This document shows, in pieces, positions 18,822 through 59,601 of a stretch of DNA of 64,000 nucleotides. The DNA is from Flavobacteriales bacterium (GTDB lineage Bacteria > Bacteroidota > Bacteroidia > Flavobacteriales_F > PHOS-HE28). Where the stretch lies: positions 34,898 through 98,897 of the forward strand of contig JADJOG010000045.1 in NCBI GenBank assembly GCA_016713865.1, written 5' to 3'. Made by a program: the position numbers and the translations under genes. Under the pieces are notes generated by a model. That model saw only the letters and a program-made list of their open reading frames with translations, searched no databases and was not told the origin of the DNA. Every line of letters starts with the position of its first letter. Position 1 is the stretch's first letter.

Positions 18822-18968
18822 GATGGCTCCGTGAACGGAAGCGGCGAAGCGATGACAGGTGTGTACGTTTACCGCTACTTCGCAGAAGGCCATTACTTCC
18901 CACCCGTTGACGGCGTTGGGCATGTTACATTGATCAGGGGCAGCCAGGATTAGAAAACAACAAGAGCA

Positions 18969-21191: not shown

Positions 21192-21310
21192 AGCTCGATC
21201 GTATTCGTGCTCAAGTCAGTTGCAATGGTTGTTCGCAGTGCCTGAGATTTCGTTGCGGGGTGCGTCTTCGCTGAAGTGAACCGTATGCCTATGGTGGGTG
21301 TTTCACCATT

Positions 21311-35900: not shown

Positions 35901-38900
35901 CTCGATGAGAATCCTCTCGCGAACGCAGGACCAGATCAAGAGCTCTGCACGCCGAACATCACCAGCACCTTCCTGCAGGGCAGCGCCGTCACTTTCCCTG
36001 CGGTGGGCACATGGACATTGGTGAGCGGCACGGGCACCATCGCTCAGCCGAACAACCCCAACACGCAGGTATTCGATCTGGAGATCGGTTCCAGCGTATT
36101 CGAGTGGTCGGTTGACAACGGGCCTTGCGCAAGCGGCATCACCACCGATCAAGTGCTCATCGAGATCTTCGATGAGAACAATCCGAGCGCGAATGCAGGC
36201 GCTGATCAGAACCTGTGCACCAGCGATGGAACAACGGCTCAGTTGAGCGCCAGCGCGGTCACCTCGCCCGCGATCGGCACATGGACCCTTGTGCAGGGCC
36301 AAGGCACCTTCACGGATCCTAACGACCCCAACACCACGCTCACCAACATGGGCGTTGGCGTGATCGTGCTCGAGTGGTCCGTTGACAACGGCGCCTGCCC
36401 CAACGGTCTCACCAGCGACCAGCTCATCATCAACCTGTTCGACGAGAACAATCCGGTGGCCGATGCGGGTCCGGATCAAGAGCTATGCACGCCCACCGGA
36501 ACAACGATCGCCACCAACCTGCAAGGCAGCGCGATCATTGTTCCGGCATCCGGCACATGGACCGTTGTGAGCAGCACTGGCATTGTCCTGAACCCGAATG
36601 ACCCGAGCAGCGCTGTGGTCGGCCTTGGTGTCGGCGAGCACATCTTCCAATGGAGCGTGTTCAATGGCCCCTGCGACCCAAGCAGCACCACCGACATCGT
36701 GACCATCCGTGTTTATGATGAGAACAACCTCGATTCCGATGCGGGCCCTGATCAGCAAGTATGCACGCCGCTCACCAGCGCGACCATGGCTGGCAGCCCC
36801 ATCATCTTCCCTGCTGTTGGAACATGGACGCTGATCAGCGGGCAAGGCGACATCGCCGACCCCAACGATCCGAACACGGACATCACCAACCTCGGCCTCG
36901 GGGTGAACGAGTTCCAGTGGGAAGTGTACAACGGCAGCTGCCCCAACAGCCTCACGAGCGACCTGGTGACCATCACCTTGTTCGATGCCCAAGCACCTGC
37001 GGCTGATGCCGGGCCCGATCAAGAGCTCTGCTTCCCGATGATGCAGCAACCATCACGGGTAATGCACCGGTTGGAGCCGCCGTTGGCACATGGACGATCG
37101 TGAGCGGGCCAGGCAACATCACCGATGCGGCCTCGCCAGTGACCACTGTGACCAACCTGCTCGTTGGCGAGACCATCGTGCGCTGGACCATCACCAGCGG
37201 CGTGTGCGTGACCACCGACGACGAGGTGAGCATCCGTGTGTACGACCCGAACAATCCGCCGGCTTTCGCGGGCCTCGATCAAGAGCTGTGCGTGCCGCAG
37301 GACAGCGTGTTCATGGCAGGCAGCTCGTTGATCTTCCCCGCGGTGGGCACATGGAGCGTGATCGCTGGTGCGGGCACGCCGGTGAATCCGAACGATCCGC
37401 TCACGCTGATCGAGCAGATCGCCATCGGTGTGAATACTTACCAGTGGAGCGTCTATAACGGTCCCTGCGGAAGCAGTCTCGATGAAGTGAGCATCACGCT
37501 CTACGATGACACCACTGCTGCGGCCAATGCTGGTCCGGATATCGAGCTGTGCCTTCCCATCACCGACACCTTCCTGCAGGGCGAGCAGCCACCTGCTCCG
37601 GCCGAAGGGACTTGGACCTTGATCGCGGGCACGGGCTTCATTGTGAATCCCAACGATCCCAACACGCAGGTCACCGGACTTTCGCAGGGAACCAACGTGT
37701 TCGTGTGGACCCTTGAATGGGACCCCTGCCCCAACAACGGCATACTCACCGATACGATGGAGGTGCGCGTGTACAACCCGAACGCGCCATTGGCCGATGC
37801 CGGTCCGGACCAAGCGCTCTGCGATGCAACCAGCACCACGATGGTGGGCAATGTGCCCGAGGTTCCCGGTGTTGGAACTTGGACTCAGGTGCTCGGCGCC
37901 CCTGCAACCATCGTATCGCCTAACGATGCCGCAACGGCGATCACCGGCCTAGGTGTTGGCAGCTATCAGTTCGTGTGGGAGATCTACAACGGCCTTTGCG
38001 GCTTCGGACCGCCTAGCCGCGACACCGTGCAGGTTGATATCTACGACGGCGACGCTCCTGCAGCGCAAGCCGGCAACGACATCAGCTGGTGCACGCCCAC
38101 CAACAGCGCCGTACTCGTGGCCAATGATCCGGTATTCCCTGCGGTTGGCACCTGGACCTCGCTCTCCGGAACCGGCACCATTGCCGACCCGAACGACCCG
38201 AATACGGCTGTATTCAACCTCGGAGTGGGCCAGCACGATTTCCTGTGGACTATCGACAACGGCCCTTGCGGCAGCAGCAGCGACCAGATCAGCGTGTTCA
38301 TCTACGACGGTGATCAGGCTGCAGCCAATGCAGGTCCCGATCAACAGTTGTGCACGCCCACGACGAGCTCGACCCTGGCCGGCAACAGCGTCACCTTCCC
38401 CGGAACGGGTCAATGGAGCGTGATCGCGGGCACGGGCGCATTCGCCGATGCGAGCAACCCCAATACGGGCGTCAGCGGCCTTAGCATCGGCACCAACACC
38501 TTCCGCTGGAGCATCACGAATGGTCCGTGCGGCGATACGCAGGACGATGTGACGATCACGGTGTACAACGATGCGCAACCATCGGCGAATGCCGGTGCGG
38601 ATCAGCAGCTGTGCACGCCAACGAGCAGCACCAACTTGCAAGGCAGCGCGGTGACCTTCCCGGCAACCGGCAACTGGGTGTTCGTGCAGGGCAGTGCTAC
38701 CCTCAGCAGCTCCAGGCAGTCCCAATGCAACACTCAGCGGTCTCACCGTTGGAACCTATGTGCTGCAATGGGTGGTCGATAACGGACCGTGCGGCACCAG
38801 CACCGACAACGTGACCATTGAGGTCTTCGACGGAACAGCGGCTCCGGCGGCGGCTGGTCCGGATCAATCGTATTGCACGCCCATCACGCAGCAAGTGAGC

Positions 38901-39641
38901 ATGCTCGCCAGCGCGGTTGCTGCACCCGGCGTGGGTACATGGTCAATCGTAAGCGGCTCTGCAACCATCGCGCAGGACACCGATCCCTTCACTGTGATCA
39001 CCAACCTGGGCCTTGGGGCCAACGTGTTCCAATGGACCGTTGACAATGGCGCATGCGGCACCACCAGCGATCAGATCACGATCATGGTGTACGACCACAC
39101 CGTGCCTGCGGCGAATGCCGGTCCGAGCCAGCAGTTCTGCCAGGATGTGAGCACCACGACCCTCGGCGCAGTGCCCGCCACCAGCACCGCGAGCGGAAGC
39201 TGGAGCCTGTTGAGCGGCAGCGGCAACATTGAGCAGCCCGGCAACCCGAACAGCGCGGTCAACGGCCTTGCGCTTGGCTACAACGTGTTCCTGTGGACGC
39301 TGAACAACGGCGACTGCGGCACCACCACCGATACGATGACGGTGTATATCAAGGACTGCCTCACGATCAAGATCCCCGATGCCTTCTCACCCAACGGCGA
39401 TGGCACCAACGACGAGTTCGTGATCACCAACATCGAGAGCTATCCGAACAACACCTTCCAGGTATTCAACCGCTGGGGCAACAAGGTGTACGAGGCATCG
39501 CCTTACACCAACAAGTGGGACGGCACCAGCCAGTTCGGATCGGCATTCAAGGAAGGACTGCCGGAGAGCACCTACTACTACATCCTGGACCTCGGCAACG
39601 GCAGCGATGCCTACACCGGATTCATCTACCTGCGACGCTAA
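29906..39641 (+). CDS. giant cell-surface adhesin (SprB-like organisation) of ~3240 aa with about 32 tandem ~85-aa repeats and a C-terminal T9SS type B (gliding motility-associated) sorting domain, carrying 3 single-base frameshifts
   Basis: Signal peptide (IKPLIASLAALLLWQGEARA), a Cys-rich N-terminal domain, and repeats of consensus NAGPDQxLCxPxTSxTLAGN..FPAxGTWTLVSGxGTxxNPNSPTTxVTGLxVGxNVFxWTVxNGPC...TTDxVTIxVFD. The C-terminus is IPDAFSPNGDGTNDEFVI...VFNRWGNKVY...STYYYIL. Four ORF-track pieces (29864..35344, 35124..37103, 37100..38782, 38694..39641) are contiguous in homology, with 1-nt indels near 35128, about 37045 and about 38705. Confidence 0.75.
31120..39350 (+). repeat. in-frame tandem array of ~255-nt (about 85-aa) coding repeats inside the giant adhesin gene
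   Basis: The NAGPDQ / GTW(T/S)(L/V)VSG / NGPC landmarks recur at a period of about 255 nt. The copies differ at the nucleotide level by roughly 30-50%. Confidence 0.7.
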
Positions 39642-39684
39642 ATCATGCACGGGTGCGCGGTAACGTGCTCCAACAGATACACCG

Positions 39685-40620
39685 ATGAAGATGAGAACCG
39701 CCAAACGATGGATCGGCAGCGCGCTGGGGATGCTCCTGGGCACCGTGCTCCTGGCCCAGCAGGACCCGCAGTTCACCCAGTACATGTTCAACATGCTGGC
39801 GCTGAACCCGGCCTACGCTGGAAGCAGCGACCGCATCAGCTTGAAGGCGCTGAGCCGCCACCAATGGGTGGGCTTCGAGGGCGCGCCCACCACGCAGACG
39901 CTCACCATACACAGCCCGGTATTCAACGAGAGCTTCGCGCTGGGCGGCACCATCATGCGCGATGCGCACGGACCCATCACGCAATACACCTTCATGGTCG
40001 ATGCGGCCTATCGCATCTTCATGGGTGATCAGAAGCTCGCCTTCGGCCTCAAAGGCGGCCTCAACCTCTTCCAAGGGAAGTTCGCCGAGCTGAATCCGCA
40101 GACCGCGGGCGATCAAGTGTTCCAGCAGAACGTGAACTCGAAGCTCGATCCGCAATTCGGCTTCGGCATGATGTGGTACAGCGACCGCCACTATTTGGGC
40201 CTGAGCACTCCGAAGCTCCTGCGGACGGAATTCTTCAAGGAAGACTCCCTCGCCTTCGTGAGCTCGCCAGGGCAGCGCCCGCACTATTTCCTCACCGGCG
40301 GCTACGTGTTCGATCTCGGTCTCTACCACAAGTTCAAGCCCACCTTCCTCCTGAAAGCCGTGCAGGGCGCGCCCATGAGCTTCGACCTGAGCGCGAACGT
40401 GCTCTTCTATGAGAAGTTCTGGCTCGGCGCCATGTATCGTCACAAGGACAGCGTGGGCCTGATGGCGCAATACCACATCACCGACGATTTCACCGCGGGC
40501 TATGCCTACGACATCACGCTCTCGCCGCTGCGCAACTATAGCGGCGGCAGCCACGAGATCATGCTCGGGTATGAGTTCGGCAAGCGCGCCAAAGGAATCC
40601 GTTCACCACGCTACTTCTGA
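39685..40620 (+). CDS. PorP/SprF family type IX secretion system membrane protein
   Basis: The signal peptide then QQDPQFTQYMFNMLALNPAYAGS is the hallmark PorP/SprF N-terminus, and the ~310-aa beta-barrel size fits. It lies immediately 3' of the type-B CTD adhesin, as sprF does in the sprB operon. Confidence 0.8.
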   Translation: MKMRTAKRWIGSALGMLLGTVLLAQQDPQFTQYMFNMLALNPAYAGSSDRISLKALSRHQWVGFEGAPTTQTLTIHSPVFNESFALGGTIMRDAHGPITQYTFMVDAAYRIFMGDQKLAFGLKGGLNLFQGKFAELNPQTAGDQVFQQNVNSKLDPQFGFGMMWYSDRHYLGLSTPKLLRTEFFKEDSLAFVSSPGQRPHYFLTGGYVFDLGLYHKFKPTFLLKAVQGAPMSFDLSANVLFYEKFWLGAMYRHKDSVGLMAQYHITDDFTAGYAYDITLSPLRNYSGGSHEIMLGYEFGKRAKGIRSPRYF

Positions 40621-40622
40621 TC

Positions 40623-42800
40623 ATGAAGCAACGCATCCACATCCGGCTCGCCCTACTTGTACTGGCACTGGTGGCCGCACCAGCGCTGCGCGCGCAGAAG
40701 CTGCAGCAGCGCATGGCCGACCGTTACGCCGACGTTTTCGACTACAGCAGGGTGGCCGCCATATATGAGGACCTTGATGGCAAAGGCAAGAGCGACGCGG
40801 CCAGCCTGCGCCGTTTGGCTTTGGCTTACCGCAAGCTCGGCAACGCCCCCGCTGCTGAAGGCGCCTATCGCCGATTGATGATCACGCCCGGCCGCAATGC
40901 CGATGACATCCTCAACTTCGCTGATCAGCTGCGCGCCAATGGCAAGTACGGTGAAGCACTGGAGCAATATGCCATCTATGCGAAGGAGCGTCCGGACGAT
41001 ATGCGGGCACAAGGCTACCTGCGCAGTGAGAACCTCTTTTATAGGTTGAAGCGCGACAGCACCAGCGCTACCATCCGCCAACTCCCCATCAATAGCGCGG
41101 ATGCCGATCTGGGCGCTACCGTGATGGAGGAGCTGCTTGTCTTCAGCAGCGCGCGCGGCGATGGCGCCGGCGGCCGCCGCATGTACGCTTGGGACGATCA
41201 GCCCTTCCTGAACCTGCACACGGCGCTGCTGAAAGGGGAGACCGCTGAAGACCCGATCGTGATGCGCAATGATGTGAACAGCCGCTACCACGATGGCATC
41301 GCCAGCTTCGATTCACTGGCCAAGCGCATGTACTTCACCCGCAACCAGTATTACTACGGAGAGGTGAAGCGGAGCGAGCGCGGCGAGCTCAATCTGGGCA
41401 TCTACTTCACCGACGTTGTGAACGGCGAGTTCGGCCAGCTCGAATGGAGCAACCTCGTGCCCTTCGAGCATAACGATGAGAACTTCAGCACCGGTCATCC
41501 GCGCGTGAGCCCCGATGGCCGCCGACTCTATTTCGTGAGCGACCGTCCCGGCGGGATCGGCGGCACCGACATCTGGTTCTGCGACAACCTCGGCAACCAA
41601 TGGGGCGTGCCGCAGAATCTCGGCCCCAAGGTGAATACGCCGGGCGATGAGCTGCATCCGTACATCGCCGCGAACAACACGCTCTACTTCGCCAGCACGG
41701 GCCATCCGGGCCTCGGCGGTCTCGACCTCTTCTACACGCGCATCGGCGTGAACGGCCCGGGCAACGTGTTCAACATGGGCTATCCCATGAGCACGCGCTT
41801 CAATGATCACGGCCTACTGCTCATCAACGACAGCACGGGCTTCTTCAGCAGCGATCGAGCCGGCGGCCAAGGCAGCGACGACATCTATGGCTGCACCATC
41901 AGGCCGCCCATGATCCACCTCGCGGGCATCGTGATCGACAAGAACACACGCGAGCCCATCGAGGGCGCCACCATCCTGCTCAAGGATGAGAAGGGCCAGC
42001 ATGTGAAGCGCGCGCAGCTCGAGACCCTCGCTGGCGGCAAGTTCCGCATGGAGGCCGAGTACCACGAGAAGTACCTGCTGGTGGCCACGGCCAGCGGCTA
42101 CTACCAGACCGAGCTGGCGATCAGCACCAACGAGGATCCGCTGGAGGATATCGTGGTGGAAATGGTGAAGTACGACTATGCCGCCGAGGGCACCGTGTTC
42201 GACGGCGAGACGAATGCTCCGTTGGCCGGGGCCACCGTGGTGCTCACCGATGCCAAGGGCGAAGAAGTCGGCCGCGTGACCACCGATGCCACCGGCACTT
42301 ACCACTTCCCCTTGCTGAAGGACAGCGACTACAAATTGCAGGCGGAGAAGGATGGCTACTTCAAGCAGAGCGCTCGCATAACGACCAAGGGCAAGCCCAG
42401 CGCGATCATCGTGACGGATTTCCGCCTCTTCCCGCTGAAGGTGGATCAAGTGGTGCGCCTGGAGAACATCTTCTACGACTACAATAAGTCGAACATCAGG
42501 CCCGATGCAGCGGTGGAACTGGATAAGCTGGTTCAGACGCTCAACGACAACCCGACGGTTCGCATTGAGCTGAGCAGCCACACCGATTGCCGCGGCAAGG
42601 ACGCATACAACCTGAACCTCTCCGAGAAACGCGCGAAGAGCGCCGTGGAATACTTGATCAGCCAAGGCATCGCGAAGGGCCGCTTGGTGAGCAAGGGCTA
42701 CGGCGAGAGCAAGCCGAGCGAGACCTGCGTTTGCGAGAAGTGCAGCGAGGATCAGCACCAGAACAACCGTCGCACCGAGTTCAAGGTGCTGAGCAAATAG
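40623..42800 (+). CDS. PorE-like outer-membrane protein (TPR, TolB-like beta-propeller, carboxypeptidase-regulatory-like domain and OmpA_C domain)
   Basis: Signal peptide, TPR helices (AYRKLGNAPAAEGAYRRL), WD40/TolB-like repeats (DGRRLYFVSDRPGGIGGTDIWF, LYFASTGHPGLGGLDLFY), a carboxypeptidase-regulatory-like beta domain (AGIVIDKNTREPIEGATILL), and a C-terminal OmpA domain (ELSSHTDCRGKDAYNLNLSEKRAKSAVEYL...NRRTEFKVL). Confidence 0.75.
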   Translation: MKQRIHIRLALLVLALVAAPALRAQKLQQRMADRYADVFDYSRVAAIYEDLDGKGKSDAASLRRLALAYRKLGNAPAAEGAYRRLMITPGRNADDILNFADQLRANGKYGEALEQYAIYAKERPDDMRAQGYLRSENLFYRLKRDSTSATIRQLPINSADADLGATVMEELLVFSSARGDGAGGRRMYAWDDQPFLNLHTALLKGETAEDPIVMRNDVNSRYHDGIASFDSLAKRMYFTRNQYYYGEVKRSERGELNLGIYFTDVVNGEFGQLEWSNLVPFEHNDENFSTGHPRVSPDGRRLYFVSDRPGGIGGTDIWFCDNLGNQWGVPQNLGPKVNTPGDELHPYIAANNTLYFASTGHPGLGGLDLFYTRIGVNGPGNVFNMGYPMSTRFNDHGLLLINDSTGFFSSDRAGGQGSDDIYGCTIRPPMIHLAGIVIDKNTREPIEGATILLKDEKGQHVKRAQLETLAGGKFRMEAEYHEKYLLVATASGYYQTELAISTNEDPLEDIVVEMVKYDYAAEGTVFDGETNAPLAGATVVLTDAKGEEVGRVTTDATGTYHFPLLKDSDYKLQAEKDGYFKQSARITTKGKPSAIIVTDFRLFPLKVDQVVRLENIFYDYNKSNIRPDAAVELDKLVQTLNDNPTVRIELSSHTDCRGKDAYNLNLSEKRAKSAVEYLISQGIAKGRLVSKGYGESKPSETCVCEKCSEDQHQNNRRTEFKVLSK

Positions 42801-42916: not shown

Positions 42917-43951
42917 CTACGCCCAAACTGGCGATCCCTCGGAGCAATTCCTGCACATCTCGATGCTGCTTCGTGAATGAAGCAGCGAGCGGCGGAACGT
43001 GTTGTAGGCATCGCTGCGCCACAGCTCGTTGAAACCATGCGTGCGCAGATCGCCAAGCACATGGTGCGCGTCCTTGTCGAAGCAGCAAGGGACCACGCGG
43101 CCATCCCAAGTGATCACGCAACTGTGCCACATCTTCCAGCAATTGTCCTCCAATCTGCTCTTCACTTCCCACACGCCCTGCGCATTGCGGCGGTAGCGCG
43201 CGTACTTGTCCTGCACGGGTATGAGCGGATGATCGTCCTTGGGGTCGTAGATCTGCGCGGTCTTCAGCCATAGCTCATCCACGCCCAGTTCGCGCCAGTT
43301 TGCGCGCCTCGGAATCTGGTGCTCGTTGGGTTTCACCACCAGGAACTGGAACACCACATGCGGCGTGCGGCTCTTCAGCCTGCGCTTCCACGCCACGATC
43401 CTGCGCGTGCCCTCGATCACTTTGGCGAGCTCGCCTTCGCGGCGGTACTGCTCGTAGGTCTCCTGTGTTGTGCCATCGAGCGAGATGATGAGTCGCGATA
43501 GGCCGCTGCGCACGGTGGCTTCGGCGCTGGCGTCGTCGATGAAGTGCGCATTGGTGCTGGTGGCGGTGTAGAGGCCGCGGTCGTGGGCATGCCGCACCAT
43601 GTCGAGGAAGCGCGGGTTGATGTAGGGCTCACCCTGGAAATAGAAGGTGAGGGCCCAGAGGTCGGGCGCCAGCTCATCGATCACGCGCGTGAAGAGCTCC
43701 TGTTTCAGGTTGCCGGTGGGGCGTGTGAAGCTGCGCAGACCGCTCGGGCATTCGGGGCAGCGCAGGTTGCAGGCCGTGGTGGGCTCGAAGCTGATGCTGA
43801 AGGGCATGCCGCCGATGCGCGGCTCCTTGCTCCGCTTGGCACGTTGGAAGCTGGTCCATAAGGCGGCGGCGTTGCGCAGGCGGCGCGGCGTGGCGTACCG
43901 GCTCCATTCGTAGGCATCACGCGCGCGTGCAAGCATCTGTCTAGGCCCCAT
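42917..43951 (-). CDS. radical SAM/SPASM domain protein
   Basis: FEPTTACNLRCPECPSG (CxxxCxxC) and a C-terminal Cys-rich SPASM-like region (CWKMWHSCVITWDGRVVPCCFDKD...CRNCSEG). The start is uncertain between the ATGs at 43951 and 43936. Confidence 0.7.
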   Translation of the reverse strand: MGPRQMLARARDAYEWSRYATPRRLRNAAALWTSFQRAKRSKEPRIGGMPFSISFEPTTACNLRCPECPSGLRSFTRPTGNLKQELFTRVIDELAPDLWALTFYFQGEPYINPRFLDMVRHAHDRGLYTATSTNAHFIDDASAEATVRSGLSRLIISLDGTTQETYEQYRREGELAKVIEGTRRIVAWKRRLKSRTPHVVFQFLVVKPNEHQIPRRANWRELGVDELWLKTAQIYDPKDDHPLIPVQDKYARYRRNAQGVWEVKSRLEDNCWKMWHSCVITWDGRVVPCCFDKDAHHVLGDLRTHGFNELWRSDAYNTFRRSLLHSRSSIEMCRNCSEGSPVWA

Positions 43952-44131
43952 GGGCTGGTGGGGCAAGGTATAGGCGGTGCGCCTCCAGCCTTTGCATTGA
44001 TCACATCCGTTCGTGGTGCAGGGCGCCTCTTTATCGACCAAACATCGACTGCCCGGGTCAACGGTCCACACGACTCGGGGGCATTCGTGCATTCATCCGC
44101 GAACACGCATCTTTAGCCTTTCACATCATCC

Positions 44132-45383
44132 ATGATCGCGTCCCGGACTTTGCTGAGTGCCCGAGCATTCGTCCTTTTCGTGTTGCTGTGCGGCTCGGTC
44201 CCTTCGATGCACGCTCAGCCATACACCGTCAAGGCGGTTTACGATTCGCTCGACACGCGCCACGACTTGAAGCGGCCCTTGATCGAGCGTTACTTCATCA
44301 CAAGCAATCATCACTGGGCCTGTTTCAATCGGGGACTGATCGCTGAGGCGAGGATCACCTCCAAGGAAGAGCTTGAGCTGGCTGAGCAGCTCGGCATCGA
44401 TAGTCTGCTCGCGACCGCCTCGCACCATGTGGGCGATGCCTTCAACGGGTCGGCGGATGCGGCTTTGCAGTTGAAGTATTTCTATCAAGGCCTGGAGTAT
44501 GCGCAACGCTCCGGCATTCCGAACTATATCGGCACCGCGCAGAAGCAGATCGCCACCGTACGCCTATGCCCGTTCCTATTACATGTTGGGATCAGCATAC
44601 GCGGCGAAGCGCGAACGCCAGCTGGCCGATGTCCATTTCGCACGCGCGATCGAGGTGGCGGATTCCTTCCAGGTGATGATCCCGCTCTTTGGTTCCTTGT
44701 TGGGCCGGGGCCAGATGCAATTGGAGGCGGGCGACATCCCCGCTGCCATTGCTGACGGTAGGCGTGCCTTGCTCGTGAGCAGCAACGGGGGCAACCTCGA
44801 AGGCTTGGTGGGTGCATCAGACCTCTTGCGCCGATCCTTCAAGGCGCTTGGGGAAACCGACAGCGCGTACCACTACTTCGAGCTGCGCGTGATGTACGCC
44901 GACAGCCTGATCAACGCCACCAACCTGAACAAGCTGCAGAACATGGCTTTCGCGCAGGAGCTGAAAGAGCGCGAGGTGGCTAAGGCGAAAGAGGATGAAC
45001 AGGCGACCCGCTCCCGCAACATCCAGTTCGGGATCATCGCCCTCATTGTGATCACCCTCGGCATTTTCCTGCTCGTGCTCAGCCGCACCGCTATTGTAGG
45101 TGCGAGGACCATCAAGAACCTCTCGCTCATCGCGCTGCTGCTCTTCTTCGAGTTCATCAACCTGCTGGTGCATCCGTTCCTCGGCGAACTGACGCACCAC
45201 TCACCGCTGCTCCTGCTGTTGTGCATGGCGGCAATCGCCGGTTTGCTCATTCCGCTGCACCATCGCATGGAGCACTGGATCACCAACATGCTCGTGAGTA
45301 AGAACAACCGCGTGCGGTTGGAGGCGGCAAGGAGGACGATCGAGGAATTGGAATCGCGAACGGAAGAGCGCCCAACGAACTAG
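44132..45383 (+). pseudogene. paralog A of the TPR-like membrane protein family, with an internal deletion/frameshift
   Basis: The N-terminus resembles paralog E (YDSLDTRHD...), and the C-terminal TM module is intact. About 85 aa are missing relative to E, with a frame change near 44560-44600, so the track splits it into ORFs 44132..44755 and 44499..45383. Confidence 0.55.
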
Positions 45384-45386
45384 CGC

Positions 45387-46826
45387 ATGCAAGCCACAAG
45401 GGACCGAATGAAGTCACTGCGGATCGGGCTGGTCGCCGTCATGCTCGGCATGTTGCCGTCGGTGGGCCACGCTCAATTCGTTATCGCCCAATTGGACACG
45501 CTCGATGTGCGGCATGACAAGTCGCAGTCCATAGACGTCCGCCTCGAAGCAGCAAAGGACCACGCCATCGCTTGTTTGTACGCCGGGCGCGCCGAAGAAC
45601 TGCGGAGCACAGCACTGTTCATGCTGGATCTGGTGCCCGAAGCGAAGGAGGACTCGACGCTGGGCCAGACCTACCTGATGGTGAGCTACTCGTGCAAAGA
45701 GAGTGACCCCGGCAAGGGCCTGGAATACATGCACAAGGGGCTGGAGCATGCGGAGCGGAGCGCGATGCCCGGCCTGATCGGCTGGGTGGAGAAGGAGATC
45801 GGCGTCTTGTACAAACAGATGGGGCAGTTCCGCGAAGCGATCAACTGGATGAAGCGTGCAGAGGGGCATGTGAAGGGCTGGGTGGAAGTGAACCGCACGC
45901 ATTGCCATTTGAGCGAGGCGTATGCAGCCATCGGCCTGTTGGACTCTGCCATGTTCCATGCGCAGGCGTCCAACATCATTACCTCCGCGGCGATGGATCC
46001 ATACGGCTACGCCCGTTCGCAGCTGGTGCTGGGCAAAGCCTACACTGCCAAGAATGAGTTGGACATGGCCGAGCTCTTCTTCCGGAAGGCGATCGCCGTT
46101 TGCGATTCGTTCGGCGTGGTGCGGGTGATGCCTGTTGCGCTAGTGGGTGCGGCCCATGTGCGGCTTTCCGCCGGCGACCCTAACACTGCGGTCGGTCTTG
46201 GCCAGCGTGCCCTGGCTGTTGCCGAGCGCTCGGAGAACCTGCCCTCCTCCATCGAGGCCACTCACCTGTTGGAACGAGCCTATCACGCCGCAGGCAAGCC
46301 AGACAGCGCTTACCTCATCCTGAAACTGCATGCCACCTTGCAGGACAGCCTGGTGAGCGCCGAGAAGCTGAGCAAGGTGGAGAACATGCGCTTCGGCCAG
46401 CAGTTGAAAGCCAAGGAAGAGGAACAAGCGCGCATAGAGGCCGAGCAGGAACGCTCCCGCAACATCCAGTTCGGGATCATCGCGCTCATCGTCATTACGC
46501 TCGGCATCTTCCTGCTCATCTTCAGTCGCACGGCGGTTGTTGGCGCCAAGGCCATCAAGAACCTCTCGCTCATCGCGCTGCTGCTCTTCTTCGAGTTCAT
46601 CAACCTGTTGGTGCATCCGTTCCTTGGAGAACTTACACATCACTCGCCGATCCTCATGTTGCTGTGCATGGCCGCGATCGCCGGGCTGCTGATCCCGCTG
46701 CACCACCGCATGGAGAAGCTGATCACCAACATGCTTGTATCGAAGAACAACCGCGTGCGCTTGGAAGCGGCGCGGAAGACGATCGAGGAGTTGGAGGGAA
46801 GTCGCGGAGAAACGAACGCAAGCTGA
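45387..46826 (+). CDS. paralog B of the TPR-like triple-TM membrane protein family
   Basis: Signal peptide, TPR-like helical repeats, a coiled-coil (EKLSKVENMRFGQQLKAKEEEQARIEAE), then the conserved module RSRNIQFGIIALIVITLGIFLL..AIKNLSLIALLLFFEFINLLVHPFL..LLCMAAIAGLLIPLHHRME..NMLVSKNNRVRLEAARKTIEELE. Confidence 0.7.
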   Translation: MQATRDRMKSLRIGLVAVMLGMLPSVGHAQFVIAQLDTLDVRHDKSQSIDVRLEAAKDHAIACLYAGRAEELRSTALFMLDLVPEAKEDSTLGQTYLMVSYSCKESDPGKGLEYMHKGLEHAERSAMPGLIGWVEKEIGVLYKQMGQFREAINWMKRAEGHVKGWVEVNRTHCHLSEAYAAIGLLDSAMFHAQASNIITSAAMDPYGYARSQLVLGKAYTAKNELDMAELFFRKAIAVCDSFGVVRVMPVALVGAAHVRLSAGDPNTAVGLGQRALAVAERSENLPSSIEATHLLERAYHAAGKPDSAYLILKLHATLQDSLVSAEKLSKVENMRFGQQLKAKEEEQARIEAEQERSRNIQFGIIALIVITLGIFLLIFSRTAVVGAKAIKNLSLIALLLFFEFINLLVHPFLGELTHHSPILMLLCMAAIAGLLIPLHHRMEKLITNMLVSKNNRVRLEAARKTIEELEGSRGETNAS

Positions 46827-46831
46827 TCGCC

Positions 46832-48307
46832 ATGAATGCAAGGAAACTTCAGCAACGAACCGTATCCATGGTGTTCAGACCACTCGTTCTGCTAATCGGC
46901 ATCGGTTGTATAGGACAACTGCGCGCCCAACCGCTCGACACGCTCTTTGTCAGGCTGCGCGGCCTGCCGGTCGATTCACTGGAAGCACGCGAGCGGGCAG
47001 CGACCGACCCCCGGATGAAGATGGTTGCCATCAACAGGCTTACCGGTCAGTACGCTTTTCTCGGTCGCACGGAGGACTGCATGAAGGCAGCGATGCGCGG
47101 ACTTGAGTTGGCAGAAACGACCAAGAACGACACGCTGCTCGCCCTGGCCCACTTCGGTATCGGAGTGGCGTTCACCAGGCTCAGCGATGTGAACGGGGCG
47201 CTGAGGCACTTCAACATCGCCTTCGATGGCTACCAGCAGATCGGGGACAGCATGCGCATGAGCCTGACCTGCAAGGAGACCGCGATCGTGTACCAGCAGG
47301 TCGGGGATATCGATGGCACCTTGCGCTACATGCGGAAGGCACAGGCCTATGGCTTGGGTCAAGGGATCCACGGGCGTTCGATGACGATCCTGGCAAGGTG
47401 CCACATGGATCGCGGCGATCTGGACTCCGCGCTCTACTATGCCCGCCTGGCTGATGTCATGAAGGCGCCCGGCACGGATCCGTACGGCTACGCCGGCTAC
47501 AAGCTCATCATGGCTAATGTGCATGCTGCGCGTGGTGAGGGCGATGTGGCCGAACCCTACTACAAGAGAGCATTGGCGGTGGCGGATTCAGCTAGAACGC
47601 TGGATGCGCTGATAGGTGGTTCGGCCGGGTATGCGAAGCTGCTCATTGGCCAGGGGCGCGCTGCTGAGGCGCTTGACTGGGCGCGCAAGGGATTCTCGGC
47701 CACCGACGAAGTGCGGCTGCCAGTTCTCATGATCAAGTCCACCACGGCCTTGTCGGAAGCCTTTGCCGCGAATGGCATGACTGATAGCGCGCTGGTGTAT
47801 TCTCGGATCGCTCATGCCTGGCGCGATTCGCTCACGGCCTTGCAGAACAGGAGCCAGCTTCAGAACCAGTTGTTCACGCAGGAACTGAAGGACCGTGAGG
47901 ATGCGAAGGCCCGCGAGGAAGCCAAAGAAGAACGCTCCCGCAACATCCAGTTCGGCATCATTGCGCTCATCGTCATCACGCTCGGGATCTTCCTGTTGGT
48001 CTTCAGCCGCACAGCGGTGGTTGGAGCCAAGGCGATCAAAAACCTCTCGCTCATCGCGCTGCTGCTCTTCTTCGAGTTCATCAACCTGCTGGTGCATCCG
48101 TTCCTCGGTGAACTGACGCACCACTCACCGCTGCTTCTGCTGCTCTGCATGGCCGCCATCGCAGGCTTGCTTATTCCGCTCCATCACCGCATGGAGCACT
48201 GGATCACCAACATGCTCGTGAGCAAGAACAACCGGGTGCGGTTGGAAGCGGCGCGGAAGACGATAGAAGAACTGGAGGCGAGGCCAAATAACACCAATCC
48301 GAGCTGA
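46832..48307 (+). CDS. paralog C of the TPR-like triple-TM membrane protein family
   Basis: The ATG at 46832 gives MNARKLQQRTVSMVFRPLVLLIGIGCIGQLRAQP; the same architecture and the conserved C-terminal module. Confidence 0.7.
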   Translation: MNARKLQQRTVSMVFRPLVLLIGIGCIGQLRAQPLDTLFVRLRGLPVDSLEARERAATDPRMKMVAINRLTGQYAFLGRTEDCMKAAMRGLELAETTKNDTLLALAHFGIGVAFTRLSDVNGALRHFNIAFDGYQQIGDSMRMSLTCKETAIVYQQVGDIDGTLRYMRKAQAYGLGQGIHGRSMTILARCHMDRGDLDSALYYARLADVMKAPGTDPYGYAGYKLIMANVHAARGEGDVAEPYYKRALAVADSARTLDALIGGSAGYAKLLIGQGRAAEALDWARKGFSATDEVRLPVLMIKSTTALSEAFAANGMTDSALVYSRIAHAWRDSLTALQNRSQLQNQLFTQELKDREDAKAREEAKEERSRNIQFGIIALIVITLGIFLLVFSRTAVVGAKAIKNLSLIALLLFFEFINLLVHPFLGELTHHSPLLLLLCMAAIAGLLIPLHHRMEHWITNMLVSKNNRVRLEAARKTIEELEARPNNTNPS

Positions 48308-49785
48308 TGGGAATGATGAGGAGTACCCTTCAAGAACGATCGGTCAGGAGACTGTTCATGCTGTTCTGCGCGGTTGTCAACATGACCGCCATCGGGCGCT
48401 TGCATGCCCAGCCGTTCGATACGCTCGTCGCCCGGATCAGTGACCTTCCAGTGGACACCTTGATCATCCGCGAGAAGGCCACGGAAGATCCCCGCATGAA
48501 GGTCGCGTTGCTCGCACGGCTGGCCGTGAAACTCCTCTACGTCAATCGTCAGGATGAATGCATGTCCACCGCGCTCCGGATGTTCGAGATAGCGGGACCG
48601 ACCGGTAACGATACACTTATCGGAAGGGCGCAGCTATCCATCGGGTTCTCCTTCGTGATCGCCAATGAGGTGAACGGCGCATTGAAGCACTTCAACCTTG
48701 CGCTCGATCACTTTACGAGCGCGCGTGATAGCATCTGGATGGGTGCGACCTGCAAGGAGCTCGCCGTGCTCTATCAACGTGTGGGCGACAACGATGGTGC
48801 CATGCGCTACATGCGCAAAGCGCTGGCTTTTGGCATGCCCCCTGGGATACGTTCGCGAGGGCTGTCAACAATAGCCCGGGTCTTCATGGACCGAGGCGAA
48901 CTCGATTCCGCGCTCTACTACACCAAGCAAGTGGAAATGGTCAATACGCCCGGCGAGGACCCTTGGACCTACGCCTTTTCCAACGGTGCGCTTGCAGCGG
49001 TTTATGCCGCCCGGCATGAGGCCGATCTAGCCGAACTGCATTTCAAGCGCGCGATCGCCGCCGCGGATTCCTTCCAACTGCCGCTTCCCCTTGTTCAGTT
49101 CGCCGCGGGGTATTCTTCCTTGCTCTTGGAGCAGGGCCGCACAGCGGAGGCGCAAGCCATTGCGCAGTTGGGTTTCCGCTCTGCGAATGGGGTTCGCAAT
49201 CCGAACATCCTGGAGAAAGCCGCTGAAGCCTTGGCGGATGCGTTCAAGGCGGACGGCTTGGCCGATAGCGCATTCTACTACGCGAAGTTGTGCATCGCCT
49301 ACCGCGACAGTGTGATCGCCACACAGAACCGCAGTCAGCTGAAGACCCAGCTCTTCGCGCAGCAGCTCAAGGACATGGAGGATGCGAAGTTGCGAGCGGA
49401 GAAAGTTGCCGCCCGTTCCCGCAACATCCAGTTCGGCATCATCACGCTCATCGTCATCACGCTGGGGATCTTCCTGCTTGTGCTCAGCCGCACGGCTTTG
49501 GTAGGCGCTCGAGCCATCAAGAACCTCTCGCTCATCGCGCTGCTCTTGTTCTTCGAGTTCATCAATCTACTGGTGCATCCGTTCCTTGATCGCATCACCG
49601 ACCACTCACCGATCCTGACGCTGTTGTGTATGGCTGCCATCGCAGGTTTGCTGATCCCGCTGCACCACCGCATGGAGAAGCTGATAACCAACATGCTGGT
49701 GAGCAAGAACAACCGGGTAAGGTTGGAGGCGGCGAGAAGGACGATAGAGGAGTTGGAATCAACCAACGCAAAGTCAGAAGGATGA
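48307..49785 (+). CDS. paralog D of the TPR-like triple-TM membrane protein family
   Basis: Its start overlaps the paralog C stop (TGATG); the conserved C-terminal module is present. Confidence 0.7.
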   Translation: MGMMRSTLQERSVRRLFMLFCAVVNMTAIGRLHAQPFDTLVARISDLPVDTLIIREKATEDPRMKVALLARLAVKLLYVNRQDECMSTALRMFEIAGPTGNDTLIGRAQLSIGFSFVIANEVNGALKHFNLALDHFTSARDSIWMGATCKELAVLYQRVGDNDGAMRYMRKALAFGMPPGIRSRGLSTIARVFMDRGELDSALYYTKQVEMVNTPGEDPWTYAFSNGALAAVYAARHEADLAELHFKRAIAAADSFQLPLPLVQFAAGYSSLLLEQGRTAEAQAIAQLGFRSANGVRNPNILEKAAEALADAFKADGLADSAFYYAKLCIAYRDSVIATQNRSQLKTQLFAQQLKDMEDAKLRAEKVAARSRNIQFGIITLIVITLGIFLLVLSRTALVGARAIKNLSLIALLLFFEFINLLVHPFLDRITDHSPILTLLCMAAIAGLLIPLHHRMEKLITNMLVSKNNRVRLEAARRTIEELESTNAKSEG

Positions 49786-51215
49786 AGCTCTTTCAGATGA
49801 TCCGGGCTCTGATGCTCGTGCTCACTTTGTTGATACGAGGAGAAGTCGGTGCTCAGAAACTCGGCATCGAGTCACGATACGATTCTCTCGACACCCGGCA
49901 CGACATGTCACGCCCGATGCTCGAGCGATTCTGGATCACGGTGAACCATGCTTGGGCGTGTTACTACAGAGGTGAACGGACGGCCTCAACACGGGCTGGC
50001 ATGGATGCACTTGGATTGGCCGATTCCCTTGGCGTGGATACCCTGGGAGCTGAAGCGTATCTGGTCCTTGGCAATTCGACCGGTGGATCCGCCGACCCCG
50101 AGGTCGCGATGAAGCACTTTTACCGGGCACGCGCCCTTGCCGAGAAGGCAGGCAGCCGGGAGTATTCAGGTGTGGCGGACAAGGAGATCGGCGTTGTATA
50201 CAGGCTGATGGAGGACTATCCACGTAGTCTTGAGCTGCTGAAGAAGGCGATTGTGAACGTGCGCTCGATGCTGGAGGTGAACCGCACCTACTGTCAATTG
50301 AGCGACACCTATCGTTTCATGGGTCAGGCCGACTCGGCCCTGTACTACGCCCATCGATCGAACACCATCCGGGAGCCTGAGGAGGATCCCTATGGCTATG
50401 CGCGATCCTACTACACCTTGGGTGCGGCCTATGCGGCCAAGGGCGACCGCGTTCTTGCCGAGGTGCATTTCACGCGTGCGATCGAAGTGGCGGATTCCTT
50501 TGAAGTGGTGATACCGCTGATCCAAGCCCTCGGGGGGCGAGGGCGTATGCGCCTGGAGATCCAGGATCTCCCCGGAGCCATCACCGACGGGCGGCGGGCC
50601 CTGGCGGTTAGCCTTGCCTTCGGTCATTTAAGCTTGACGGCCAGGTCTGCTGATCTCTTGCGTGCGGCCTACAAGGCGCAGGGTCGCCTGGATAGTGCCT
50701 TTCATTACTCGGAGATGAAAGCGCTGTTCAACGACAGCCTGAAGACCACCGGGAACATGATCAAGCTTCAGAATATGACCTTCGAGCAGGACCTTAAAGA
50801 GCGGGAGGAGGCTAGGCTCCTGGAAGTAGCCGCCACAGAACGCTCCCGCAACCTCCAGTTCGGCATCATCGCCCTCATTGTGCTCACGCTGGGCATCTTC
50901 CTGTTGGTGTTCAGTCGCACAGCGGTGGTGGGAGCCAAGGCCATCAAGAACCTCTCGCTCATCGCGCTGTTGTTGTTCTTCGAGTTCATCAACCTGCTGG
51001 TGCATCCGTTCCTTGATCGCATCACCAACCACTCGCCGATCCTGATGCTGTTGTGTATGGCTACCATCGCAGGTTTGCTGATCCCGCTGCACCACCGCAT
51101 GGAGAAGCTGATCACCAACATGCTCGTGAGTAAGAACAACCGGGTAAGGTTGGAAGCGGCAAGAAGGACGATCGAGGAGTTGGAGGGAGCAGGAAAGACG
51201 GATCCTGTGGGTTAG
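49782..51215 (+). CDS. paralog E of the TPR-like triple-TM membrane protein family
   Basis: The ATG at 49782 overlaps the paralog D stop (ATGA). It begins MKLFQMIRALMLVLTLLIRGEVGAQ, and the conserved C-terminal module is present. Confidence 0.7.
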   Translation: MKLFQMIRALMLVLTLLIRGEVGAQKLGIESRYDSLDTRHDMSRPMLERFWITVNHAWACYYRGERTASTRAGMDALGLADSLGVDTLGAEAYLVLGNSTGGSADPEVAMKHFYRARALAEKAGSREYSGVADKEIGVVYRLMEDYPRSLELLKKAIVNVRSMLEVNRTYCQLSDTYRFMGQADSALYYAHRSNTIREPEEDPYGYARSYYTLGAAYAAKGDRVLAEVHFTRAIEVADSFEVVIPLIQALGGRGRMRLEIQDLPGAITDGRRALAVSLAFGHLSLTARSADLLRAAYKAQGRLDSAFHYSEMKALFNDSLKTTGNMIKLQNMTFEQDLKEREEARLLEVAATERSRNLQFGIIALIVLTLGIFLLVFSRTAVVGAKAIKNLSLIALLLFFEFINLLVHPFLDRITNHSPILMLLCMATIAGLLIPLHHRMEKLITNMLVSKNNRVRLEAARRTIEELEGAGKTDPVG

Positions 51216-51616
51216 GCCCGCTTCAGCTCCTTCATCGCCGCCTTGATGAAGCCTTCTTTGTCCATCTTCACCTCCTTCAGCATGGCCTTGCGGTCGGCGG
51301 GGATCGGGAAGTACTTCTCCGCCCAGAGGTTGATCTCGATCATGATGGGAAGCAGGTCCACACCCATCGGGGTCAGCTTGTACAGCACCTTGGCCTTGCT
51401 GTCCGGGTGGTCCAGTTTCTCTATCAGCCCGCTCTGCTCCAATAGCTGCAACCGTGCGGCGAGGATGTTGGTGGCGATACCCTCGGGCGCTTTCAGGAGT
51501 TCGCCGTAGGTGAGCTGCTTCGCGAGGAACAGGTCACGGATGATCAATAGGGACCACTTGTCCCCCCAGATGTCCAGGGAGCGGCTCACAGGGCAGTCGG
51601 AACGCAGGGTCTTCAT
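51212..51616 (-). CDS. HxlR family transcriptional regulator (winged helix, DUF24)
   Basis: CPVSRSLDIWGDKWSLLIIRDL...GELLKAPEGIATNILAARLQLLEQSGLIEK is the HxlR signature. It is divergent from an MDR quinone oxidoreductase, a common pairing. Confidence 0.8.
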   Translation of the reverse strand: MKTLRSDCPVSRSLDIWGDKWSLLIIRDLFLAKQLTYGELLKAPEGIATNILAARLQLLEQSGLIEKLDHPDSKAKVLYKLTPMGVDLLPIMIEINLWAEKYFPIPADRKAMLKEVKMDKEGFIKAAMKELKRA

Positions 51617-51726
51617 CGGCTCGAAGTATCGATGGCGAAGATAGTACTTGCAAAGAGCAAGTAAAGCAGTACGTTTGCGCTTGCAAAAGACAAGTGACAT
51701 TCCGACGAACCATCGAACAAGGAACC

Positions 51727-52728
51727 ATGAAGGCTTACATCATCGACAAATACAAGAGCGCCGACGGCGGGCGCATCGCCGATATGCCGGAACCCGAACT
51801 GCGGCCCGGAGATGTACTGGTGAAGGTCCACGCAGCTGGCCTGAACGTGCTGGACTCGAAGATCAGGACCGGCGAGTTCAAGCTCATGCTGCCTTACCGG
51901 TTCCCGCTGATCATGGGCAACGATGTGGCCGGCGTGGTGGTGAAGGTGGGGGCCATGGCGAAGCGGTTCAAGGTCGGTGATGAAGTGTACGCGCGGCCGG
52001 ACAAGGACAGGATCGGCACGTTCGCCGAGTTCATCGCCATGGACGAGGCCGATGTCGCTTTGAAACCGAAGTCGCTCACCATGGAAGAAGCGGCGTCCAT
52101 TCCGTTGGTCGGCTTAACGGCCTGGCAAGCACTGGTGGAAATGGCCAACGTGAAGAAGGGACAGAAGGTCTTCATCCAAGCGGGCTCGGGTGGCGTGGGC
52201 ACCTTCGCGATCCAACTGGCCAAACACCTGGGTGCAACCGTGGCCACTACCGCCAGTGCAGCGAATGCCGCGTTGGTCAAGAGCCTCGGCGCCGATGTGG
52301 TGATCGACTACAAGACGCAAGACTTCGAGACCACCCTGCGCGACTACGACGTGGTGCTGAACAGCCAGGACGGAAAGACACTGGAGAAGTCGCTGCGCAT
52401 CCTCAAGCCGGGCGGGAAGCTTATCTCCATCACAGGCCCACCCGATGCCGCGTTCGCGAAGGAGCTTGGTGCGCCTTGGTATGTGGAGTTGCTCATGAGC
52501 GCGCTGAGCGCAGGCGTGCGGAAGAAGGCGAAGCGTTTGAAGGTCGGCTACCGATTCCTCTTCATGAAGGCGAGTGGTGCCCAGCTGGAGCGGATAACTG
52601 CGCTCATCGATGCCGGCACCATCCGGCCGGTCATGGACAAGGTGTTCCCGTTTGCGGAGACCAAGGAAGCACTGGCCTACATCGAGACGGGTCGTGCGAA
52701 AGGGAAGGTGGTGGTGAAGGTGCAGTAG
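51727..52728 (+). CDS. NADPH:quinone oxidoreductase / zinc-type alcohol dehydrogenase-like (MDR superfamily)
   Basis: MKAYIIDKYK...VLVKVHAAGLNVLDSKIRTG...GSGGVGTFAIQLAKHLGATV, the MDR Rossmann motif. Confidence 0.8.
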   Translation: MKAYIIDKYKSADGGRIADMPEPELRPGDVLVKVHAAGLNVLDSKIRTGEFKLMLPYRFPLIMGNDVAGVVVKVGAMAKRFKVGDEVYARPDKDRIGTFAEFIAMDEADVALKPKSLTMEEAASIPLVGLTAWQALVEMANVKKGQKVFIQAGSGGVGTFAIQLAKHLGATVATTASAANAALVKSLGADVVIDYKTQDFETTLRDYDVVLNSQDGKTLEKSLRILKPGGKLISITGPPDAAFAKELGAPWYVELLMSALSAGVRKKAKRLKVGYRFLFMKASGAQLERITALIDAGTIRPVMDKVFPFAETKEALAYIETGRAKGKVVVKVQ

Positions 52729-57931: not shown

Positions 57932-58792
57932 TTAATTGGCTGGAGGGGCGACCCAGTCCCATATCCCTCTCTTATGATTGAATGTCCAGTGCACAGCTTT
58001 TGTAAAGTTCTGGCTGGGGTTTGTGCAACGTATTTCCAACCCTCGGCCCAAGGCAAGTGCGTCCTGTCTTTTTGCTCTATCGTTCAAGCGACGCTGGTGC
58101 CGAAGCAACTCATTGTAGAAGAGAACGACTCGATGGAAGATCTCTTCCCACCAGGGATATCGTTCTTGAGTGTGGGGTGCGTGTCTCTTCGGGTCATAGT
58201 TCGTGAAGCCGATGCTGTTGTCTGTTATGTAGAACTGACTGTGAGCGACGGCATTACGCACTTGAGACCGATATATGCTCTTCAAGAGGTTGTAGTACTT
58301 GGGACATGTTGACTGAAGCGGGTCACGTATCTGAAGTCTGATTAGTTCTTGTCTAGAATCGTCGGGGCCAATTGTGTACTGCCAATTGAATGGCTGGCCT
58401 AAAGCAAGCTGGGTATAGTGGTAGAGCTTCTTCAGAATGCGATCTGCTTCCCAGAACCTCAGATAAACCATCATCTCGAACTGAATTGTCTGCCGAATTG
58501 CCTTTGCGACGTCGGGGTCCTTCTCCGCTTTATCGAATGTCTCCTTTCGCGACTCGTTTGCTAAGAAGGCCTTTCGATACATGTCGTAGAACTCGTATTG
58601 GGTGTGCTCTGCTTCATGATCCCAACCACCCAGTCCAGGGCCGAATCCGTTGTCGATTTCAGTGAATTGCCCGATTTCTGTCAACAAGAGATCCTGAGGG
58701 TGATCTAAGTTCCGATAGATGGTCTGAAACAGTTCGGCGACGGCCTCTTCCACCTCCGGTCGAAGCCTTTCGAGAATTTCTTCGAATAGCAT
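57932..58792 (-). CDS. hypothetical protein with a canonical HEPN-type R-N-x3-H motif (candidate defence/abortive-infection RNase), in a low-GC islet
   Basis: 286 aa at about 50% GC in a ~65% GC background. It carries the motif SQVRNAVAHSQFYI (R-N-x-x-x-H), is largely alpha-helical, and has no signal peptide. Confidence 0.45.
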   Translation of the reverse strand: MLFEEILERLRPEVEEAVAELFQTIYRNLDHPQDLLLTEIGQFTEIDNGFGPGLGGWDHEAEHTQYEFYDMYRKAFLANESRKETFDKAEKDPDVAKAIRQTIQFEMMVYLRFWEADRILKKLYHYTQLALGQPFNWQYTIGPDDSRQELIRLQIRDPLQSTCPKYYNLLKSIYRSQVRNAVAHSQFYITDNSIGFTNYDPKRHAPHTQERYPWWEEIFHRVVLFYNELLRHQRRLNDRAKRQDALALGRGLEIRCTNPSQNFTKAVHWTFNHKRGIWDWVAPPAN

Positions 58793-58920
58793 GTTTCGGT
58801 GATATGGTCACACAAACGCCCGAAACCCGGTGCCGCACATCGCGGGCATCGGGTTCGGGTGGTCAAATGTACCGTCATGGGTTCGCTCAGTATGTAGCTT
58901 TTGTCGTATAGCTTTCCGAC

Positions 58921-59490: not shown

Positions 59491-59601
59491 TTCCCTGCTC
59501 ACGTTTCCCGCGTCGAGGTGCCTCGTTTCTTGCTGCACATTGAGCCCAACGCCGCGCATTCCGGGCATCGGGTTCGGGAACGGGTGCGAAGCTACGTGTA
59601 G

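Follow-up and report, generated by a model that had tools for sequence, protein, structure and literature searches.

A conserved C-terminal membrane module in a tandem array of TPR-repeat genes from an uncultured Flavobacteriales bacterium: evidence on selection, codon bias and recombination

An array of five TPR-repeat genes with a common C-terminal module

The window analyzed here is a 64,000-nucleotide stretch of contig JADJOG010000045.1 (positions 34,898 to 98,897 of the forward strand, assembly GCA_016713865.1) from an uncultured GC-rich Flavobacteriales bacterium, and this work concerns five paralogous genes, g1 to g5, that encode tetratricopeptide repeat (TPR) proteins and form an operon-like array on the chromosome. 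The five genes are all on the plus strand and packed end to end at positions 44132-51215 of the window (Table 1). The TGA stop codon of g3 is overlapped by the ATG start of g4 and the stop of g4 by the ATG start of g5 (ATGA), and the other junctions leave 3-5 nt between genes. Four of the genes are complete open reading frames (ORFs) with their own starts in the same orientation, g1 being the sole defective copy. In g1, a 194-nt internal deletion, seen in the alignment with g5, shifts the frame at about 44563/44564 and leaves two overlapping ORFs (44132-44755 and 44499-45383); the blastn matches of g1 to orthologs at other loci all start at about nucleotides 425-433 of the gene, which is the deletion junction. 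The deletion removed about two TPR repeats, and the C-terminal module of g1 is intact and as conserved as in the other copies.

Each intact protein comprises a signal peptide, about 330 amino acids of TPR repeats, a stalk helix, and a 115-codon C-terminal module with three transmembrane (TM) helices. The Pfam profile TPR_12 is matched at 57.9 and 55.0 bits (cutoff 30.1), with further matches to TPR_7, TPR_8, and others. The AlphaFold2 (AF2) model of the g2 product (predicted local distance difference test score, 85.3) contains paired helices over residues 49-301 and later helices at residues 305-381, 387-417, and 421-471; one long stalk helix continues into TM helix 1 and is followed by two TM helices and a basic cytosolic helix. 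TPR superhelices (LGN, Rap, and NprR) were the sole matches returned by a Foldseek fold search of the PDB. Both the profile matches and the superhelix fold place the proteins among the TPR-repeat proteins (Pfam clan TPR). The product is a secreted, periplasm-facing TPR superhelix that is specific to each paralog, and its inner-membrane anchor is the common C-terminal module made of the three TM helices and the basic cytosolic helix.

The module itself matches no Pfam, NCBIfam, or PADLOC family, and its sequence matches in the PDB all have E > 0.1. An exhaustive profile-free search found it in 1110 cluster representatives, nearly all of about 460-480 amino acids and of the same architecture. 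The only named member found among these carriers is a single-copy gene from Pedobacter; the family therefore reaches beyond this Flavobacteriales clade, and tandem arrays are not general to it. Homologs of the window genes were found only in uncultured GC-rich metagenome-assembled genomes (MAGs) labeled "Flavobacteriales bacterium," mostly from wastewater, with g2 orthologs at 65-95% identity. Many module residues are invariant over 66 family members, including the polar residues E403, N406, P411, H439, H440, R441, and E443 within the membrane helices of g2 (residues 403-443, window positions ~46593-46715), a pattern that hints at a specific intramembrane function or contact rather than a passive anchor. 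For "BT3442," the literature search yielded a single paper, on an unrelated MACPF structure, and assignment to a defence system was rejected, as PADLOC returned generic TPR matches only.

Table 1. Coordinates of the genes, module copies, and hairpin examples in the window
Feature	Position	Strand	Description
g1	44132-45383	+	Pseudogene copy of the TPR/3-TM family
g2	45387-46826	+	479 aa; signal peptide, 7-8 TPR repeats, long stalk helix, 3 TM helices, cytosolic helix
g3	46832-48307	+	491 aa paralog
g4	48307-49785	+	492 aa paralog
g5	49782-51215	+	477 aa paralog
C module copy 1 (g1)	45009-45353	+	Located by tblastn with the 115-aa module; used for in-register identity
C module copy 2 (g2)	46452-46796	+	Located by tblastn; used for in-register identity
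C module copy 3 (g3)	47933-48277	+	GELTHH/MEHW patch (module nt ~174-269) in common with copy 1
C module copy 4 (g4)	49414-49758	+	DRIT[DN]H patch (module nt ~176-222) in common with copy 5
C module copy 5 (g5)	50841-51185	+	Closest window pair with copy 4: 89.6% nt identity, dS 0.35
Hairpin examples	45305-45320, 48229-48244, 49710-49725, 51137-51152		Module codons 99-104

Divergence of the module within the window and in related genomes

A sequence-only reading of the window had proposed that the paralogs end in near-identical 3' modules, and five direct copies are indeed present, with the two strings it had quoted each occurring once per copy with 0-5 mismatches. Each copy is 345 nt or 115 codons long (RSRNIQFG...TIEELE) and precedes a short variable tail. 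Compared in register, the five copies share 81.7-89.6% of their nucleotides pairwise (mean 84.6%), somewhat below the 85-95% first given; the segments delimited in that reading begin 3-20 nt away from the module starts and are mutually shifted by as much as 17 nt, and an ungapped comparison of them as written therefore gives an identity of only 22-37%. Chance is far from explaining five copies of 345 nt with about 85% identity, and nowhere else in the array does DNA similarity extend over a long stretch. The upstream parts of the genes share 41-57% of their nucleotides and 23-48% of their amino acids, the N part of g3 being 23% identical to that of g2 and 47% to that of g4, and the N part of g5 being nearest to that of g1 (48%). 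Divergence is thus not uniform along the genes, as had also been claimed: the codon-alignment profile runs at 34-62% identity through the TPR part (to codon column 340) and 66-69% in the coiled-coil linker, steps sharply up to 80-90% in the module, and falls to about 50% over the final 8-14 codons of the gene.

Most of this jump from about 45% to about 85% identity is accounted for by purifying selection and codon bias. In the window, module dN is 0.03-0.10, compared with 0.48-0.99 upstream, the dN/dS of the modules is about 0.05-0.15, and 62 of the 96 variable module sites are third codon positions. The comparison set, made of 40 related loci with 84 full-length modules from about 30 related Flavobacteriales MAGs, displays the same constraint: by tblastn, nearly all 84 copies encode a module protein of about 90% identity or higher, also where the N domains attached to it are only 25-50% identical, and the lowest values for full-length modules (78-84%) occur at L012, L025, and L027. 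Codon bias is very strong (ATC 94%, TTC 99%, and AAG 97%). When the codons of the real window proteins were redrawn at random, the modules reached 75.3% nucleotide identity under N-domain usage and 78.6% (SD 2.2) under the usage pooled from the modules themselves, against the 84.6% observed, which leaves an excess of roughly 6-9 percentage points of identity over selection and codon bias.

The excess is also seen at synonymous sites, where the module has diverged less than the remainder of the gene and less than would be possible under codon bias alone. Module dS is 0.35-0.79, compared with saturated values of 1.3-2.4 upstream, the proportion of synonymous differences (pS) is 0.28-0.50, compared with 0.56-0.70 at saturation simulated with independent codon draws, and the same codon is used at identical residues with a frequency of 0.707, where 0.524 is expected. 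Furthermore, some non-preferred codons are kept site-specifically in nearly all copies (Leu104 TTG in 90%, His55 CAT in 93%, and Asp59 GAT in 97%). The palindrome CAACCG-nnnn-CGGTTG is found in each module at codons 99-104 (amino acids N-N-R-V-R-L) and includes the rare Leu TTG; the corresponding 6-bp hairpin keeps at least 5 pairs in 74 of the 84 copies, without covariation. A known RNA element in the module was rejected, there being no Rfam match at E ≤ 0.1.

Within the window, the history of the module is incongruent with that of the N part, with a statistical signal of recombination. While the informative sites of the N part favor the pairs (g3,g4) with 114 sites and (g1,g5) with 68, those of the module favor (g4,g5) with 16 and (g1,g3) with 12, are clustered by position, and give the N-part groupings only 3 and 5; the best pairs of the module are the two least supported pairs upstream. 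The pairwise homoplasy index (PHI) test, in our own implementation, gave p = 0.0005 on all window module sites. A search for conversion tracts in the window found only shorter shared patches, between g4 and g5 and between g1 and g3.

In the related genomes, module pS is about 0.36-0.40 alike for same-genome paralogs, orthologs, and unrelated copies (0.357 for paralogs vs 0.376-0.405) and is hardly correlated with N-domain pS (r = 0.17). Orthologs whose N-domain pS is as low as 0.004-0.03 carry modules with a pS of 0.27-0.39, which differ by 10-12%. The longest run of matching polymorphic sites between two modules has a mean of 21.5, compared with 16.8 ± 0.5 when the order of sites is permuted (about 9 SD), and the longest runs are enriched for pairs from the same genome. 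Furthermore, module divergence is 11.75% within a genome and 13.63% between genomes (p < 0.0005), a difference to which codon usage differences between genomes could contribute, and the nearest module neighbor lies in the same genome for 17 of the 84 copies, where 2.7 are expected. Homogenization of the modules is thus weak. At L001, which by g2 identity is nearest to the window, about 190 nt of module sequence are the same in the adjacent paralogs L001_1 and L001_2, whose N domains are at about 37% amino acid identity, and L007_1 and L007_4 match at 82 consecutive polymorphic sites; the PHI test within L007 gave p = 0.002. The module of L008_1 joins the 5' end of that of L009_2 to the 3' end of that of L009_3, with a middle patch from a third source, and one whole unit is missing.

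The N domains may have moved as well. L007 and L009, two long-read loci from different GTDB species, have in common an N cassette of about 1 kb that is 99-100% identical, with modules on either side that are 78-90% identical and DNA beyond them that is not homologous. Such cassettes (L007:9950-10975 vs L009:9950-10975, and also L008 and L024 vs L009) are 99-100% identical in genomes whose flanking genes are about 80-84% identical, and their identity breakpoints lie in or beside the conserved modules. To judge from these alignments, near-identical N cassettes in different GTDB species suggest a recent exchange of cassettes or of whole arrays. Compared with the species background, for which pS ranges from 0.30 to 0.60 in the flanking housekeeping gene Mfd, some N cassettes are far less diverged (W_2 vs L006_2, 0.19 against 0.41), which suggests movement of cassettes between lineages and not a special behavior of the module.

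Array content also differs beside the same HxlR gene, the order being g1 (pseudogene)-g2-g3-g4-g5 in the window and g3'-g2-g5'-remnant at L006, and array size ranges from 2 to 6 units. Truncated C-module fragments occur at or near the ends of arrays (L006:14855-15006, L011:16586-16654, L012:12654-12749, L035:2298-2417, and L003:8451-8537), and they look like scars of unit loss.

Explanations for the similarity of the modules

Taken together, we consider it likely, with a probability of about 0.7, that the modules are alike through strong purifying selection plus codon bias, to which recombination between copies has been added, and that their history is separate from that of the N domains. Very strong purifying selection on the module protein, together with codon bias, would make up most of the nucleotide identity, and homologous recombination would then act between the modules as the only long DNA-similar stretches of the array, both as short gene-conversion patches and as unequal crossovers, by which whole units are deleted, duplicated, or rearranged. 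With such recombination, the module would acquire a history separate from that of the attached N domain, remain below synonymous saturation, and be mosaic in every copy. The proposal of the sequence-only reading that the modules recombine or undergo gene conversion is therefore retained, on account of the reversed groupings, the PHI signal, the sub-saturation pS, and the tracts in relatives, but not as the main cause of their near-identity.

Several observations weigh against this explanation. The excess of between-genome over within-genome divergence is smaller than simple within-genome concerted evolution predicts, which may mean either that array segments have been exchanged between species or that synonymous sites are under site-specific constraint, and the similarity of same-genome copies could partly reflect genome-specific codon usage. 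When restricted to synonymous codons, the PHI test in the window is marginal (p = 0.064), so that its signal lies partly in two amino acid patches (GELTHH/DRITNH in the periplasmic loop and MEKL/MEHW); it is not significant in 5 of the 6 other genomes tested, which have few informative sites, nor on all 84 copies with a 60-nt window (p = 0.22), incompatibility in this last case being near its maximum everywhere. Linkage decays within about 10-25 nt over the 84 copies and most pairs of sites show all four gametes, which fits very short patches but could also result from recurrent mutation at two-state wobble sites. The mean module pS of orthologs (0.41) equals the Mfd background (0.42), and plain vertical descent of the module may therefore apply to many pairs. 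Finally, every comparison genome is a MAG, and repeats may be joined wrongly in such assemblies. The contigs of L008 and L024 come from short reads and break off within modules, while the cases of L007/L009 and L007_1/L007_4 are from long-read assemblies.

Part of these observations would be expected if purifying selection and codon bias acted on their own, without gene conversion, the mosaic look being homoplasy at saturated wobble sites. The predominance of third-position changes, the low dN/dS, the very strong codon bias, the 75-79% nucleotide identity predicted from these two factors alone, the near absence of linkage over the 84 copies, the marginal synonymous-only PHI, and the agreement of ortholog module pS with Mfd all speak for it. 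We nevertheless regard it as unlikely, since the observed identity and pS fall outside the simulated ranges and non-preferred codons are retained site-specifically in ancient paralogs. Neither does it explain the reversed groupings of N part and module, the 190-nt identical tract in paralogs with strongly diverged N domains, the 10-12% module differences in orthologs with hardly any N-domain divergence, or the matching-site runs some 9 SD above the permuted value. The retained rare codons (Leu104, His55, and Asp59) and the hairpin kept in most copies would fit a function of the module DNA or mRNA, such as RNA structure, pausing for membrane insertion, or a binding site, that fixes the synonymous sites. 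Such a nucleotide-level constraint could coexist with recombination. As the explanation in itself we give it little credence, given the lack of an Rfam match and of covariation in the hairpin, and given that it accounts neither for the reversed groupings nor for the identical tracts of paralogs nor for the loss of units at breakpoints within modules. Only slightly better placed, and still very improbable, is an origin of the mosaic modules and shuffled units of the comparison genomes in chimeric metagenome assembly or polishing over repeats. It is favored by the MAG origin of every comparison locus and by the short-read contigs L008 and L024, which start or end inside modules. The same pattern is however found in long-read assemblies from different plants, L007 (a 1.56-Mb contig) and L009, and within L007 between paralogs 1 and 4; moreover, cross-mapping should homogenize the modules and not leave 10-20% differences beside 100% identical N cassettes, and the signals of the window itself are independent of the other assemblies.

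The sequence-only reading had also likened the array to a contingency locus, that is, a site of programmed or antigenic variation where a constant 3' cassette often recombines with alternative 5' cassettes to switch the protein. Conserved sequence does lie on both sides of the variable cassettes, and array composition does vary between close relatives, as between the window and L006 beside their common HxlR flank. This likeness did not hold in other respects, and programmed switching appears highly improbable. Tandem Repeats Finder detected no simple-sequence repeats in 43500-51800, the only inverted pairs are three of 18-20 nt at chance level with no repeats of an invertible element, and none of the ten flanking genes that were scanned encodes a recombinase or reverse transcriptase. 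Silent cassettes are absent: g1 excepted, the units are co-oriented ORFs with their own starts and tight or overlapping junctions, which fit co-expression and not a store of silent donors. In addition, the N-domain orthologs are stable over species and under purifying selection (pN/pS about 0.1-0.25). As to variants of the array in the population, a contig index had no exact match to the proteins of g2, g3, or the alcohol dehydrogenase gene, and one scan of metagenomes yielded a single contig of 1.5 kb. Mutagenesis of the diversity-generating retroelement type was rejected, the variable sites being mainly C/G third positions with 16 of the 113 window changes at majority-A sites.

Returning to selection with added recombination, the module may be conserved because the paralogs must all fit one membrane partner or oligomerize together, and the TPR parts may bind different periplasmic ligands. 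The same module homology seems to let N-domain cassettes move between lineages in the related MAGs. A further-reaching idea, which we regard as possible but doubtful, is that the module also serves as an integrase-free recombination arm, through which TPR cassettes are deleted, duplicated, reordered, and exchanged between co-occurring Flavobacteriales species: as each variable cassette of a tandem array has a module on both sides, ordinary homologous recombination would suffice. This would explain the 99-100% identical N cassettes between species whose flanks are about 80-84% identical, the breakpoints in or at the modules, and the flat synonymous divergence of the module (about 0.38), independent of relationship. 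If true, these species would have in common a mobile set of periplasmic binding domains, all mounted on one fixed membrane chassis. As for selection with added recombination, if this account holds, the array would be a clear bacterial case for separating the two inside one gene: a module held nearly constant by selection would become, because it is constant, the site of recombination among diverged receptor-like genes.

While this kind of gene-family evolution, domain-restricted concerted evolution, is already known, the protein family is new to it and unstudied. The analysis flags an uncharacterized family that combines a periplasmic TPR superhelix with a 3-TM module matching no existing family and that has expanded into arrays in one wastewater Flavobacteriales clade, the conservation of the module suggesting a common partner. 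A modest practical consequence is that orthology calls and trees would be wrong unless the two parts of the gene are analyzed separately.

Related systems and genomic neighborhood

The babA/babB genes and other Hop paralogs of Helicobacter pylori have variable 5' and middle regions and highly similar 3' regions, and chimeras between them are made by RecA-dependent conversion. The present genes resemble them in joining a variable 5' part to a highly similar 3' part. The bab loci are scattered, owe their phase variation to dinucleotide repeats, and are involved in host adaptation, whereas the genes here form an array without repeats or on/off features. In Rhs and CdiA-CT orphan arrays and in pilE/pilS-type systems, the donor cassettes are truncated and promoterless, with immunity genes in Rhs and contact-dependent inhibition loci. 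As in the array, the variable modules of these systems lie between conserved sequences, which provide the homology for replacing a cassette; here, in contrast, the units are all built as complete genes with the conserved part at the C-terminal end, and PADLOC gave no toxin/immunity signature.

In protein architecture, the array proteins resemble periplasmic-TPR sensor histidine kinases of Bacteroidota such as FimS (NCBIfam NF053520), with their signal peptide, periplasmic TPR, coiled-coil stalk, and membrane span. The NF053520 profile matches the array proteins only weakly and over the TPR and stalk only (E 1e-5 to 3e-9; best 35.6 bits against a 600-bit cutoff). Unlike FimS, the array proteins have no HisKA/HATPase or other output domain in Pfam and end in a 3-TM bundle and a cytosolic helix of about 30 amino acids. 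A FimS-type TPR sensor histidine kinase was therefore rejected, on the score below cutoff and the lack of a kinase domain.

Gene conversion that limits divergence has been described for mammalian TLR1/TLR6 (PMC2077338). There too, conversion holds one part of tandem paralogs together in sequence and the ligand-binding part diverges, and the process is detected through incongruent histories. The array differs in being bacterial, with 2-6 units, in its weak and patchy homogenization that leaves modules 10-18% apart, in the dominance of purifying selection at the protein level, and in an exchange that, within the MAG set, seems to extend from one species to another. Prokaryotic examples of lasting conversion between paralogs are the mtrA duplicates (PMC4632066) and RF1/RF2 (PMC4530459), where partial similarity is likewise maintained by repeated conversion over a long time. 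These cases concern two copies of well-known enzymes or translation factors, unlike the multi-copy, uncharacterized TPR array with turnover of units.

The locus is chromosomal and syntenic in many genomes. Mfd, recognized by its conservation over loci, and other flanking genes are common to 12-16 loci; the conserved flanking genes comprise a TonB-dependent receptor-like gene, a LOG-like gene, and Mfd, all named from their sequences alone. They look like ordinary chromosomal context, and functionally linked neighbors were rejected on this ground. The upstream flank of the window is unlike that of other loci. The ten flanking genes scanned include type IX secretion system (T9SS) cargo, PorP/SprF, OmpA, radical-SAM/SPASM, HxlR, alcohol dehydrogenase, and hydrolase genes. 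A T9SS cargo cluster, with large PKD-domain proteins of which one has a CHU_C sorting domain, occupies positions 35124-42800 (+) just upstream of the array; it continues with PorP/SprF and then an OmpA-family protein with PD40 and CarboxypepD_reg, and it does not lie beside the arrays at other loci. The radical-SAM/SPASM gene (42917-44092, minus strand) is divergent from the array and was not found beside arrays in the 40 related loci. Elsewhere in the window, where the GC content is about 0.61, there are dips to 0.555-0.585 at 16001-22000 and to 0.530 at 58001-60000, which may be islands or differently composed genes.

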